Part shown: piece by piece, positions 1-57,505 of the stretch | Position numbering within the stretch: the first letter of the stretch is position 1 | Layout: every line of letters starts with the position of its first letter | NCBI GenBank assembly: GCA_030595715.1 | Contig: JAUVCN010000001.1 | Coordinates: forward strand, 1,418 to 65,417 | Reading direction: 5' to 3' | DNA length: 64,000 nt | Source: Thermoplasmatales archaeon | Lineage (GTDB): Archaea; Thermoplasmatota; Penumbrarchaeia; Penumbrarchaeales; Penumbrarchaeaceae | The notes under the pieces: generated by a model | Told to the model about the DNA's origin: nothing | Database searches by the model: none | The model's input: the letters and a program-made list of their open reading frames with translations, nothing else | Position numbers and translations under genes: made by a program

Positions 1-353
1 ATCTCCACGATATCACCCTCGGTGATATCGGCTACGATAGGTTTCGGAGCAAGGTAATGCTCTATCTCTTTCAGGGATATATCGCGTTCTCCACCGACTA
101 TGCCCCTTACGTACTGCATTCCCTTGAGAAGCTCCTCGATCGCCTTCTCGTTCTTTTCTCCCTCGATCAGGACATATCCACGGAGCTTCATGGGCGAGAT
201 AATGGAAAAGATATGAGCCCCTTTCCTCTTGCCCTTCTGCCCCAGGTTCTCTGCAACTGTCTTCTCATGACCTAGTGCGGTCTTGATCGCAAATATGGTA
301 TGAGGGAAATCTACCTCTAGGAGATCCTCTCCATCAGCATTTTCTTCTTCCAT
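1..353 (-). CDS. spt5: Transcription elongation factor Spt5 (NusG homolog), N-terminal (NGN) part; gene runs off the window edge
   Basis: Reverse-strand translation from the ATG at 353 reads MEEENADGEDLLEVDFPHTIFAIKTALGHEKTVAENL...HYLAPKPIVADITEGDIVE, which matches the archaeal Spt5 NGN domain. It sits in the conserved ftsZ-secE-nusG(spt5) order. Confidence 0.8.
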   Translation of the reverse strand, partial: MEEENADGEDLLEVDFPHTIFAIKTALGHEKTVAENLGQKGKRKGAHIFSIISPMKLRGYVLIEGEKNEKAIEELLKGMQYVRGIVGGERDISLKEIEHYLAPKPIVADITEGDIVE

Positions 354-54112: not shown

Positions 54113-54832
54113 TCACCCCCCCCTCTTCTTCTTGTCCTTGTTCTTCTTCCTGGAACTCATCCTTCCTACCTTCTGTCCAGGTGGGGCATGCTTGGAAACA
54201 GTACTTGGTTTTCCAACATGCTGGTGACCTCCACCTCCGTGGGGATGGTTCACCGGACTCATTGCAACACCTGAGACAACTGGATAATAGATAGCCTTCG
54301 ACCTGATAGCGTGGACCTTATTTCCTGCCTTGGCGAATGGAAGATCGGGCCTTCCACCACCGCCGGCCATACCTACAATGGCCCTGCATTGTCCTGATAG
54401 ATTCTTGAAGCTACCGGATGGCAGTTGGATGGTCACATCCTTACCCCTGGACACGATAATGGCGGATGTCCCGCCAGCTCTGACGAACTTTCCGCCGTCC
54501 AGAGGTTTTGCCTCTATATGGTAGATCGGAGTTCCCTCGGGGATCTCTTTCAGGGGGAGGATGTTACCTATCTTGATGGGTGCATCATCTCCCATGAGGA
54601 CCTCTTGACCTACCCTGAGACCCTCGGATGCGATCATGTATCTTACCCTTCCATCGTTCCAGGTCATCTTTGCCATGGGGGCCGAATGGCCCGGATCGTG
54701 GACGAGATCCACTACCCTGCCCCTGCCGGATTTCAATTTGGGCAGCTGGGCCGGGGTGAGGTGTCTGTGACTCGGGGACCTGTATACGGTAGTCCCCTTT
54801 CCTCTTCTTCTTGACTTGATTCTTTTTCCCAT
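54113..54832 (-). CDS. rpl2: Ribosomal protein uL2
   Basis: 239 aa (GGGRPDLPFAKAGNKVHAIRSKAIYYP ... HPHGGGGHQHVG). Confidence 0.9.
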   Translation of the reverse strand: MGKRIKSRRRGKGTTVYRSPSHRHLTPAQLPKLKSGRGRVVDLVHDPGHSAPMAKMTWNDGRVRYMIASEGLRVGQEVLMGDDAPIKIGNILPLKEIPEGTPIYHIEAKPLDGGKFVRAGGTSAIIVSRGKDVTIQLPSGSFKNLSGQCRAIVGMAGGGGRPDLPFAKAGNKVHAIRSKAIYYPVVSGVAMSPVNHPHGGGGHQHVGKPSTVSKHAPPGQKVGRMSSRKKNKDKKKRGG

Positions 54833-54845
54833 GATCAGACCCCCC

Positions 54846-55112
54846 TTAGAATATTCCTATCCTCATGCCCACGTCATCGGCTTTGTATTCCTTTGTGAGC
54901 TTAATGATCGCCTGCTTTCCAAATCGGGTGTGTTTTACGTTCACCCTCTCCACCTTGACCTCGAATAGCTCTTCGAAGGCTTTCTTCACTTCCGGCTTGG
55001 TGGACCCTTCCTTCACTATGAACATGATGGAATTGTGGACCTCCATAAGGTTGAGGGTCTTTTCGGTCACATAGGGATGGAGAAGGATGGTGTGAGGCAT
55101 ATTCCTTATCAT
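54846..55112 (-). CDS. rpl23: Ribosomal protein uL23
   Basis: 88 aa. Confidence 0.9.
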   Translation of the reverse strand: MIRNMPHTILLHPYVTEKTLNLMEVHNSIMFIVKEGSTKPEVKKAFEELFEVKVERVNVKHTRFGKQAIIKLTKEYKADDVGMRIGIF

Positions 55113-55936
55113 CAGTTCTCACCTCCCAATGTGTCGAATGCTTTCTTTGTGAAAAGCACGAGCCTGCCCGGGTCACCACCCGGAGCGAGAAGCTCCGTGT
55201 TGATCTCCCTGGGGCTGACGGTGTTCACACCAGGAAGGTTCTTGGCGCCAACAAGGACAGCTGATCCTTCTGTCGCAACGATAAGAATGGATTTCGGTTG
55301 TCTATACCGTCTTCCTCTCATCTTTCCCCTGCCTGCCCTGATATGTTTTCCATCATGGGCCCTTATGATATCATCTTCGACACCAACCGATCTGAGAACA
55401 GAGAGGATCTCCTGTGTTCTGGCCATCGATTCGATCTTGTCATCGAGAACCACTGGAAGGGTAAGCCCCTCCTTGAACCGATGTCCTCTTGCCCTGACCA
55501 TCTCTTCGGAAGAGACGGCTGCAAGTGCAGAGGCTTTGGCTATCCTCTTTTCCTTGGTGTTGATCTTCTTTTCGAAGGAATGTTCCGGCCTCGGAGGGTG
55601 GGCCCTTCTTCCGCCCACATTGTTTGGAGACTCGGCACCCTTTCTTCCCTGAGAAAGCCTCTGGACACGAGCGACGCCCCTTCCTTTTCCCCAGGTAGAT
55701 GTTGCATGTCTCATACCTGCGGACCTATTTGGGCCGTATCTCTGTCTCCTGTTAGCCTGGGCCGATACTACGGCCCTTCTTATGAGATCGGGTCTGAAAG
55801 ATGTCGTGAAGACCTCGGGGAGGTCTACTTTTCCTTTCACCTTACCATTGATCCCGTAAACGTTCACCGATGCTCCAGCAGGAGCCTTCTTCTTGGTGGC
55901 GGTCCGAACAGTTTTCTTTTCAGCCATATGGATCAC
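55112..55936 (-). CDS. rpl4: Ribosomal protein uL4
   Basis: 274 aa. Confidence 0.9.
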   Translation of the reverse strand: MIHMAEKKTVRTATKKKAPAGASVNVYGINGKVKGKVDLPEVFTTSFRPDLIRRAVVSAQANRRQRYGPNRSAGMRHATSTWGKGRGVARVQRLSQGRKGAESPNNVGGRRAHPPRPEHSFEKKINTKEKRIAKASALAAVSSEEMVRARGHRFKEGLTLPVVLDDKIESMARTQEILSVLRSVGVEDDIIRAHDGKHIRAGRGKMRGRRYRQPKSILIVATEGSAVLVGAKNLPGVNTVSPREINTELLAPGGDPGRLVLFTKKAFDTLGGEN

Positions 55937-55937
55937 C

Positions 55938-56933
55938 TCATTTCCCCTGTTTTGATGATGTGCTCACATAGGTGATCTCGGGAACCTTGACCTCGACACC
56001 CTTTCTCCTTACAGCGTCCCTGAACCTGATAAGCCTCTTGGTAACACCAGGTATGGACCCATGAATGAGCACATAGTTGTTCGTTACATCACCATAATGA
56101 AGGAACCCACCCTTGGGATTGATCTCTGAAGGGTCCTTTCCGACCTTCAGGATCCTCTTGTTGAATTCCGTCCTTTTATGATATCCCATTTGACCGGAGT
56201 TCGGAACAGTGGCCATGATCCAGGCAGGATGCCATGGACCCTGTGTCCCTATCATCCTTCTGTGCTTGGAGTTCTTGTGGGTAAGGAGCTTAACTCCGAA
56301 CCTTTTATTCAGTCCCTGAAATCCTTTCCCCTTTGATGTGGATATGATATCGACCATGGCGCCTTCCACCTGGAACTCGTTGAAATCAACGTCCTTTCCA
56401 ATGAGGCCTTTTGCGTATTCCACCCTTTCCTTGATGGTTCCGCCACCGATATTCATCTCCATGATCTCAGGTTTCTTCTTTGGGACCGACTTGACATCAA
56501 AAGGTTTTGAATGGACGATCACCCTGACCTCATCGACACCATCATCGGTGATGGACTTCAGATCGGGTTTCTTTCCCTTCAAAGGCACCGGTAAGGTCCT
56601 CAGAAGCTCCTTATCGAGCTTGTCGGTCCAAACCTCTTTGAGTGTGGTCAATCCGTAAGTAGTTTCCTCGTATAGTCTCATCCCAACGACCTTCATTGGA
56701 GGTACTTCAACCACCGTGACCGGGGCCATAACTTCCTGTCCAGATGTAGTGGATGTCGGCCTGTAATCGATCATGAAAACATGGGTCATTCCTGCTTTGT
56801 ATCCTGCGAATCCCTGCAGTTTGGGTTCCGATCCCCCTTCTGGCCAATGTTTGACGATAGGGGTTTCCCTCTTTGTCCTCTTTCGAGGATAGTGGGCCAT
56901 GGACCCTCTCCTTGGGTTGTGTTTCTTTCCCAT
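55938..56933 (-). CDS. rpl3: Ribosomal protein uL3
   Basis: 331 aa. This is the first gene of the superoperon, with GGAGG 8 nt upstream of the ATG. Confidence 0.9.
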   Translation of the reverse strand: MGKKHNPRRGSMAHYPRKRTKRETPIVKHWPEGGSEPKLQGFAGYKAGMTHVFMIDYRPTSTTSGQEVMAPVTVVEVPPMKVVGMRLYEETTYGLTTLKEVWTDKLDKELLRTLPVPLKGKKPDLKSITDDGVDEVRVIVHSKPFDVKSVPKKKPEIMEMNIGGGTIKERVEYAKGLIGKDVDFNEFQVEGAMVDIISTSKGKGFQGLNKRFGVKLLTHKNSKHRRMIGTQGPWHPAWIMATVPNSGQMGYHKRTEFNKRILKVGKDPSEINPKGGFLHYGDVTNNYVLIHGSIPGVTKRLIRFRDAVRRKGVEVKVPEITYVSTSSKQGK

Positions 56934-56944
56934 ATCATTCCTCC

Positions 56945-57160
56945 GAGCTTATCTCCGAGTAAATGCCGGTTGTTGGCGGAGCTATACCTGCCCTGCGTGT
57001 TTTACACAAGAGGTTGCTCCTTCGCCTATCCGACCGTTACGTCCTTTCCGGAGCCGACAAGTCTCCCCCTTGGGGGCTTATCTCCAGATATAGGGTCCCG
57101 GGTGGGTTGCCCTTGACGTTTGGCCGGAGGGCCTCTATGCGCTTTGGCACCCGGCCATAA
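56945..57160 (-). ncRNA. Candidate structured RNA: a GC-rich 5' leader of the rpl3 operon or an independent ncRNA such as SRP RNA (unverified)
   Basis: A roughly 215-nt stretch of high GC content carries several stable hairpins on the minus strand: GGCCGG...CCGGCC, CCCCCAAGGGGG, and GCUCC...GGAGC enclosing CCGGAAAGGACGUAACGG. TTTATATAT lies at 57167-57180 upstream. The region is non-coding in all frames. Confidence 0.3.
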
Positions 57161-57265
57161 AAGAAATGATATATAAATGTTATCCAAATATTGGGACCTG
57201 TCCCCCCATATAGAACTATTTTTTTTCATCCTTGGGGTTATATACGATCATTGGATAGCCGATCA

Positions 57266-57505
57266 TCATTCATTGGAGTTCGTGGATGCTGCGGCCTCGT
57301 TGAGGTCCTTCATAAGAGCATCGATGTCCATTCCATGGGCTCCAGCTCCCTGTTCAATGGATTCGAAATTTGCCATTGCACAACCGATGCATCCGAGTCC
57401 GTGCTGGATGAATACCGGCACCAGTTCCGGATGTTTTTGTATCACGTCGGATATTCCCATATCCCTTGTTATCAGATCTGTCATGATCTCACCTTGACAA
57501 GCCAT
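57266..57505 (-). CDS. DUF1858-type small redox/disulfide domain protein (hybrid-cluster-protein-associated domain family)
   Basis: 79 aa with the pattern DVIQKHPELVPVFIQHGLGCIGCAMANFESIEQGAGAHGMDIDALMKDLN. Confidence 0.6.
   Translation of the reverse strand: MACQGEIMTDLITRDMGISDVIQKHPELVPVFIQHGLGCIGCAMANFESIEQGAGAHGMDIDALMKDLNEAAASTNSNE

Follow-up and report, generated by a model that had tools for sequence, protein, structure and literature searches.

A conserved structured RNA in front of the rpl3 operon of Thermoplasmatota that resembles the L4-Archaeoglobi candidate leader

Analysis of a 64,000-nucleotide (nt) stretch of DNA from a Thermoplasmatales archaeon (GenBank assembly GCA_030595715.1, contig JAUVCN010000001.1; the whole stretch is referred to here as the window) revealed a compact structured RNA element in the spacer upstream of rpl3, the first gene of a ribosomal protein operon. 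This element, a 114-nt core at 57022-57135 on the minus strand, is well supported as a conserved cis-regulatory RNA and appears to be a branch of the L4-Archaeoglobi candidate leader (RF03135) that had escaped detection. We propose, with a probability of roughly 60%, that it is the structured 5′ untranslated leader of the rpl3-rpl4-rpl23-rpl2 messenger RNA (mRNA), through which a ribosomal protein would regulate its own operon. In the predicted transcript of the rpl3 operon the fold comes first, at the very 5′ end, and across Thermoplasmatota it was limited to the fronts of rpl3 genes.

The distribution of the element was established in a reference set of rpl3 loci drawn from one genome per species (56 loci, the closest from uncultured Thermoplasmatota) and in 80 further metagenomic loci returned by a scan with aligned rpl3 proteins. 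Covariance model R1, which comprises 22 core sequences and 19 base pairs, matched the window exactly once, at 57022-57135 with 88 bits and with no other copy, and recovered 21 complete leaders among the reference loci L001-L024 plus a 5′-truncated one in L017. The core common to these loci is CC-A-GAC(G)-NNN-AGGG(C/A)AA...CCC-[hairpin]-(C)GUNACGG. Loci of Bathyarchaeota, Hadarchaeota, Thermoproteota and other phyla gave no match to R1. In the metagenome set R1 matched 52 loci, and a broader model built solely from 61 Thermoplasmatota-type sequences (R3) added three, for 55 of the 80. All related matches were on the sense strand upstream of rpl3, which was the gene immediately downstream at every locus, and the metagenomic matches ended 8-100 nt before the rpl3 start, with two exceptions at 190-290 nt. 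No more than 8-16 nt separated the core from the start codon in some relatives, where it overlapped or directly adjoined the Shine-Dalgarno sequence.

The core consists, in order, of a closing helix (P1), a 1x2 internal loop (A / AC), a second helix (P2) and a three-way junction bearing the hairpins P3 and P4; here and below, features of the element are read on the minus strand. This fold was obtained as the RNAalifold consensus of 12 long-form leaders, in which P1 is a two-part helix and P2 has five base pairs. The 5′ strand of P1, GCC-C-UCCGGCC (57122-57132), ends in an invariant CC and pairs with GGUCGGA-UA-GGC (57024-57035), and P2 joins ACGUC (57115-57119) to GACGU (57039-57043); in the consensus fold, compensatory changes were found in eight of the ten P1 pairs (61 sequences) and in four of the five P2 pairs. 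Between these helices, the 5′ side of the internal loop (57120-57121) contains the family-invariant A57121, and the 3′ side (57036-57037) is an AC that is invariant in its alignment columns. A57120 lies opposite A57038, and this pair (19-155) is G-C in 44 of the 61 sequences. The motif G(U/C)NACGG was present in all family members.

P3 (57092-57113), defined by the consensus fold and covariation, reads AGGG-CAA-CCC(ACC)CGGG-A-CCCU and comprises invariant GGG and CCC segments, an inner helix and two bulges, one of 3 nt on the 5′ side with A as its last base and one of 1 nt on the 3′ side. Its GGG, AA and CCC are invariant in alignment A2. Among the unpaired nucleotides of the element, those that never vary are the A and the AC on the 5′ and 3′ sides of the internal loop, respectively, together with the final A of the P3 bulge. 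P4 (57048-57087; CUGGAG...CUCCGG) varies in length and sequence and holds one copy of the repeat GGAGAUAAGC. The 3′ side of P4 often contains (A/G)UUCU(G)G (e.g. L061, L078, L114 and L003), where the window has ACUUGUCGG at 57052-57062, including UUGUCGG; recurrence of this stretch in an otherwise variable hairpin suggests a conserved internal loop in P4.

Compensatory changes, sought in syntenic relatives as an earlier sequence-only reading of the window had proposed, were abundant. Standard pairs filled 87% of the paired cells in the alignment of 22 sequences and 90% in that of 61 sequences, compared with 22-50% and 27-47%, respectively, in a slid control in which the 3′ partner was moved by one to three columns. 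Compensatory changes occurred at 14 of the 19 pairs in the smaller alignment (54 compensatory cells versus 16.7 ± 3.2 in shuffles) and at 15 of the 19 in the larger (189 versus 55 ± 6). Because the sequences were aligned to the model, these values are biased in favor of structure; it would nevertheless be hard to account otherwise for the slid controls or for the frequent replacement of G-C by A-U and C-G in P1 and P2. Because GGG and CCC of P3 never vary, we infer their pairing, whereas the inner P3 helix differs in sequence between lineages and keeps its hairpin (z < −1 in 97% of the 61 sequences). Likewise, a P4 hairpin was predicted in every relative despite differing sequence, with a median z of −2.4 and z < −1 in 87% of the 61.

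Between the core and the ribosome-binding site of the window is an irregular hairpin, P5 (56978-57020; GGAGC...GCUCC), which was predicted in the minimum free energy and centroid folds and in the alignment of 12 leaders. P5 is common only to the close (long-form) relatives, and the linker from P5 to the start codon is likewise conserved only among them. Many metagenomic relatives have another conserved hairpin 3′ of the core and ahead of the start codon, with the loop motif (G)UUAGCGAAGA (for example, GCGAGG-UUAGCGAAGAGAC-CCUCGC) and ending right at the ribosome-binding site. This hairpin was seen in L090 (~1160-1185), L105, L097, L072, L108, L087, L082, L106 and L120, as well as in L061, L078, L060, L080, L073, L066 and the Poseidoniales loci L016-L022 and L084. 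The window lacks the (G)UUAGCGAAGA hairpin and has the GGAGC...GCUCC hairpin in its place.

Folding of the whole leader RNA, from the TATA region to the rpl3 ATG, gave −93.4 kcal/mol (z = −3.6 relative to dinucleotide shuffles, of which one in 200 folded as well), in agreement with the sequence-only reading that the minus-strand RNA is structured. That reading had flagged 56945-57180 as a structured element far more GC-rich than its flanks and bounded at both ends by a repeated motif. A structured element does lie there, but its conserved part is narrower, being the core at 57022-57135. The GC excess is real but modest: the GC fraction reaches 0.62 at 57050-57149, compared with about 0.50 for the genes on either side and 0.36 for the promoter region. 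The 10-mer GCTTATCTCC does occur in exactly two copies in the window (56947-56956 and 57076-57085, versus 0.12 expected), but these are not at the two ends; the latter copy belongs to the P4 5′ strand, and the former immediately precedes the Shine-Dalgarno sequence. Its absence from the closest relatives, L001 and L024, indicates that the repeat is lineage-specific. The linker at 56934-56960 reads CUCGGAG-AUAAG-CUCGGAGG and resembles a short tandem duplication of the Shine-Dalgarno-proximal CUCGGAG, which would account for the second copy of the repeat; this duplication too was not found in L001 or L024.

As the sequence-only reading had noted, an archaeal TATA box, TTTATATA, is found on the minus strand at 57170-57177. 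In archaea, transcription usually starts about 30 nt from the first base of the TATA box, and this spacing predicts a start at about 57145-57148. A TATA-like 8-mer was located 31-47 nt 5′ of the first P1 pair in 36 of the 40 relatives that had a match to a strict pattern, and a TATA-like sequence was visible in the upstream regions of all relatives. With the usual archaeal spacing, the transcript should begin 1-17 nt before P1. At the other end, the Shine-Dalgarno sequence GGAGG (56940-56944) stands 6 nt before the rpl3 ATG (56931-56933), with neither the sequence nor its distance to the ATG varying among the 12 long-form relatives.

Between the TATA box and the predicted start lies a conserved block, TTATGGCCGG (57151-57160), in which ATGG(G/C)CGG is near-invariant in the alignment of the 12 long-form relatives. 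The G+C-rich TATGG(G/C)CGG occupies the same position in L001-L010 and L024, about −13 to −3, a promoter region that is usually A+T-rich. Since the predicted start is downstream of ATGGCCGG (57151-57158), the block may be promoter DNA, not RNA. Such a block might act as a DNA element near the promoter or as a binding site for a regulator, or else the true start may lie further upstream than predicted.

Comparison with published candidates pointed to RF03135. Eckert and Weinberg (2020) described the 'L4-Archaeoglobi' candidate leader upstream of rplC-rplD-rplW-rplB in Halobacteria, Methanomicrobia and Archaeoglobi (PMC7247131). The element in the window and its relatives (window plus 22 plus 55 matches) lie on the same side and strand of the same operon and, judged from the published alignment and its SS_cons line, share the arrangement of P1, an internal loop, a P2 of 5-6 bp and a three-way junction with P3 and a variable P4. 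P3 is built alike in both, with GGG, a 3-nt bulge with an invariant final A, an inner helix, a 0-1-nt bulge and CCC.

Adding the metagenomic relatives extended this likeness to the level of sequence, with GACGC...GCGUCAC and GGG(U)CAAU(U)GC..GCA..CCC as local matches. P3 reads GGGCAAUGC[loop]GCA(U/A)CCC in Thermoplasmatota and GGGUCAAUUGCG[loop]UGCAACACCC in halobacterial RF03135, and the P2 3′ strand with its loop reads GCGUCAC and GCGCGUCAC, respectively. Across P1 and P2, the Thermoplasmatota form CGACC-A-GACGC...GCGUC-AC-GGUCG compares with CUGAC-GG-GACGC...GCGUC-A-CC-GUCAG in L125, where the loop-adjacent pairs are swapped from CC/GG to GG/CC and one A is added. R3 gave 13 non-family matches in 142 kb, and among these were two at the exact positions of RF03135 elements, in L125 (12.7 bits, E 0.42) and in L134 (9.0 bits, E 3.5). 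We estimate that, by chance, about 0.05 of the 13 would be expected to fall on any of the six RF03135 elements.

In contrast to these likenesses, RF03135 has a near-invariant P1, CUGAY/RUCAG, whereas P1 here is longer, variable and ends in CC/GG (the window has UCCGGCC/GGUCGGA and the family consensus (C)GACC/GGUC(G), compared with (C/G)UGA(N)...(N)UCA(G/C) in the RF03135 rows). The RF03135 internal loop is 2-4 / 3-5 nt instead of A/AC, and its P3 has a fourth outer pair that is lacking here. The hosts also differ, being Thermoplasmatota here and Halobacteria, Methanomicrobia and Archaeoglobi for RF03135, and the Thermoplasmatota element is intergenic, has its own TATA box and in most cases lies 10-100 nt from rpl3. 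The two types were never found together in one locus. We regard the element as a divergent branch of this kind of leader that had not been modelled before, and not as a member of RF03135 in its current definition.

Several other approaches to the relationship were set aside. A P3 sub-model derived from RF03135 (R2) scored 21.8 bits on a training member, too little information, and did not pick out P3 of the window. A topology-only descriptor gave 143 matches per 100 kb of background, a sequence-only hidden Markov model of RF03135 was too weak even for the true member L025 (E = 3.5), and MAFFT alignments of full RF03135 sequences were too poor for model-building.

RF03135 itself showed some further features in the loci examined. 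In L125 (119-222), L134 (715-824), L121 (765-852), L126, L129 and L138 (750-853), the 5′ GG, published as unpaired, can pair with the CC of the 3′ ACC next to P1, giving CUGACGG/CCGUCAG with a bulged A. In this subgroup, part of what was published as an internal loop may thus be helical. L138:750-853 looks like an RF03135 member below the Rfam gathering score. In L025 (2158-2970) and L121 (431-1201), the RF03135 element lies within codons ~112-148 of the PF02598 methyltransferase gene, encoding the peptide PDG(S/T)xWV.., and this stretch doubles as protein-coding sequence and conserved RNA structure.

We propose that an operon-encoded ribosomal protein, when in excess over free ribosomal RNA (rRNA), would bind the junction and the invariant nucleotides, with CC-A, AC-GG, GGG, the bulge A and CCC as the putative contacts. 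The bound complex would lower expression of rpl3 and the closely spaced downstream genes, most likely by hindering 30S binding at the nearby Shine-Dalgarno sequence. The position of the core in several relatives, where the P1 3′ strand ends 0-16 nt from the Shine-Dalgarno sequence, suits such steric competition with 30S; in the window P5 intervenes. Purely by analogy with the Escherichia coli S10-operon leader, uL4 is the favored ligand. P3 loosely resembles the GGGUGAC(A)NCCC hairpin (H20) of 23S rRNA domain I, located at E. coli nt 325-337 within nt 295-343, a region that we take to be the uL4 binding site on 23S rRNA. The H. marismortui equivalent of this hairpin is part of a three-way junction.

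Two matches to another part of 23S rRNA were also seen. In L011 (1668-1690), 12 consecutive nt (CCCUAGGGAUAA) are common with L057 (H. marismortui 23S, ~nt 2480-2495) in the domain V central loop, and L013-L015 share AGGGAUAA with the domain V central loop region. These matches are confined to few lineages and may be due to chance. An internal-loop descriptor search for rRNA mimicry produced spurious pairings only.

A number of results weigh against an autoregulatory leader of the RF03135 kind. RF03135 was graded 'borderline' by its authors because about 54% of its examples overlap coding sequence, lying inside that of the PF02598 methyltransferase (PMC7247131), and this was also the case in L025 and L121, the two that we checked. 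With a core-to-start distance of 8 to about 290 nt in Thermoplasmatota, and RF03135 elements lying 350-450 nt upstream of rpl3 in the fetched loci, a single steric mechanism is not general. Predicted accessibility of the Shine-Dalgarno sequence was inconsistent between relatives, among which no conserved helix sequestering it was found. The Rfam model of RF03135 stayed below its 34.5-bit gathering threshold in the window and gave no match even at E ≤ 10 on 126 nt around the element; the same scan detected RF03135 in L025, L121, L125, L126, L129 and L134. In the reverse direction, R1 did not match the RF03135 element of L025, and R3 re-found two of the six RF03135 elements, with no match to those of L025, L121, L126 and L129. 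Finally, model searches of rRNA gave no support to the resemblance between P3 and H20: R1 on the H. marismortui rRNA operon gave weak hairpin matches of ≤10 bits elsewhere than H19/H20, and H20 was not among the matches of R2 on the H. marismortui and E. coli rRNA operons.

The same autoregulatory leader might instead respond to a protein other than uL4, such as uL3, uL23, uL2 or one encoded farther downstream, for example uS8 or uL24, an alternative that we take seriously but regard as rather unlikely. Nothing in our analysis singles out uL4, and for RF03135 the uL4 ligand is a 'Prior' assignment made by analogy with E. coli, the supplement of the same study reporting that L4 binding was not seen for the Bacillus subtilis counterpart (PMC7247131). 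The constant position of rpl3 directly behind the element would fit uL3 as well, and the 12-nt CCCUAGGGAUAA match in L011 lies in 23S domain V, not at the domain I uL4 site. However, uL4 alone in the gene set has an experimentally established leader, that of the E. coli S10 operon, and the 12-nt match is limited to one lineage and could have arisen by chance (0.03 per leader by a rough estimate). A structured leader that has no ribosomal protein ligand, serving instead, for example, to stabilize the mRNA at its 5′ end, as a processing site, as a riboswitch for a metabolite or as a platform for some factor that is not ribosomal, appears improbable. It would be in keeping with the failure of the model searches to detect rRNA mimicry, and a stable fold at the extreme 5′ end of the predicted transcript could protect against 5′-end-dependent decay. 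The invariant unpaired A, AC and bulge A and the invariant GGG/CCC are, however, typical of a specific binding site, the fold is associated exclusively with one ribosomal protein operon across two phyla, and no known riboswitch family in Rfam matched.

An independent small RNA gene, encoding a signal recognition particle (SRP) RNA, an RNase P RNA or a new small RNA transcribed from the TATA box and ending before rpl3, is very improbable. The sequence-only reading had offered this alternative to an autoregulatory leader of the L3 operon, and the strong TATA box directly upstream and the compact fold are what such a gene would have. However, Rfam 15 gave no match at gathering score anywhere in the window, whether to SRP, RNase P or a known leader, and scans of 801 nt and of 126 nt surrounding the element at E ≤ 10 gave chance-level matches only. 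The SRP RNA reading is thereby refuted, and the resemblance to SRP helix 8 perceived in the sequence-only reading did not survive this comparison; the strings in question are scattered over separate helices (the P4 3′ strand, the P2 and P1 3′ strands and the base of P5), and the core is 114 nt long, compared with about 300 nt for archaeal SRP RNA. On the minus strand no terminator-like site was found in 56800-57400, and hence none between the element and rpl3, nor was there an oligo-U run of at least 5 between the core and rpl3. No second TATA-like sequence was seen by eye between the core and the ATG, leaving no other candidate promoter for rpl3, and in those relatives in which the core ends 8-16 nt before the start codon there is no room for a separate gene. 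Of the two alternatives in the sequence-only reading, the comparative evidence favors the putative autoregulatory leader, the element being conserved with covariation, always on the sense strand directly 5′ of rpl3 and similar to a published candidate leader of the same operon.

Other identities and structures were considered, and most of them were rejected. RNase P covariance models and the curated ribosomal protein leaders of Rfam gave no recognizable match, and the window contained no transfer RNA or transfer-messenger RNA. A K-turn/L7Ae site at GGC-GAA-GGAGC was dismissed on inspection, as its strands come from the three-way junction and its post-bulge position is G-C, not a sheared G·A. 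An anti-Shine-Dalgarno role of the CCUCC in P1 was likewise dismissed, this sequence being part of the covarying P1 5′ strand and not kept in short-form relatives. A 5′ hairpin ('P0') and long-range pairing between the 5′ end and the Shine-Dalgarno-proximal region may form, being present in some relatives (9 bp in L002) but not consistently; the region involved is partly upstream of the predicted start. The possibility that the leader is a remnant of PF02598 coding sequence found no protein-level similarity in Thermoplasmatota leaders.

The genes of the operon, assigned from the open reading frame (ORF) list and Pfam matches, are all on the minus strand and comprise rpl3, encoding uL3 (55938-56933; Ribosomal_L3), rpl4 (55112-55936; L4), rpl23 (54846-55112; L23) and rpl2 (54113-54832; L2). 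The listed rpl3 and rpl4 ORFs overlap by a few bases. Upstream of rpl3 is a minus-strand gene for a DUF1858 protein (57266-57505), and the spacer from the rpl3 ATG (56933) to the stop of this gene (57266) measured 332 nt, in line with the long spacer of about 330 bp that had drawn attention to this region. Farther up, on the plus strand, is the gene for the phenylalanyl-tRNA synthetase beta chain. At one metagenomic rpl3 locus without the leader, L062, four direct repeats of clustered regularly interspaced short palindromic repeats (CRISPR; RF01315) lie directly upstream of rpl3 (30-259, minus strand).

These results extend a borderline candidate to a second phylum in a form that is intergenic, promoter-proximal and strongly covarying, and such a clean occurrence strengthens the case for the whole RF03135 family as a real cis-regulatory RNA. 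They also indicate that the current Rfam model misses a large branch, found at 55 of the 80 sampled metagenomic rpl3 loci, and provide a compact RNA of 114 nt, in which the invariant nucleotides are few, as a candidate for uL4 or uL3 binding. They reveal no new kind of mechanism. To our knowledge, few ribosomal protein feedback systems are known in archaea; the uL1 mRNA site has been described and the others are computational candidates. The uL1 mRNA site of Methanococcus and the S15 and eL15 leader candidates are archaeal precedents or candidates for feedback through mRNA structure, but they concern other operons and other folds and have demonstrable rRNA mimicry, whereas none could be demonstrated here.

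Comparison with the E. coli S10 leader revealed both likenesses and differences. Both are long structured 5′ leaders in front of an operon encoding L3, L4, L23 and L2, and both would follow the logic of ribosomal protein feedback, as proposed here for the archaeal element. In contrast, there is no sequence or structure similarity between the two and no Rfam match, and the operon starts with rpl3 in archaea as opposed to rpsJ in the bacterial S10 operon. The E. coli leader acts in part by NusA-dependent attenuation at an intrinsic terminator, whereas the archaeal element has no terminator-like hairpin with a U-tract. We tentatively raise the further, and in our view doubtful, idea that a single ancient euryarchaeal feedback leader for uL4 (or uL3), older than the split of Thermoplasmatota and Halobacteriota, gave rise to both the Thermoplasmatota element and RF03135 as separate branches, and that its P3 and junction would mimic, in circularly permuted form, the H18/H19/H20 three-way junction of 23S domain I. 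If so, this leader would be the archaeal functional counterpart of the bacterial S10 leader and would be present in the globally abundant marine Poseidoniales.

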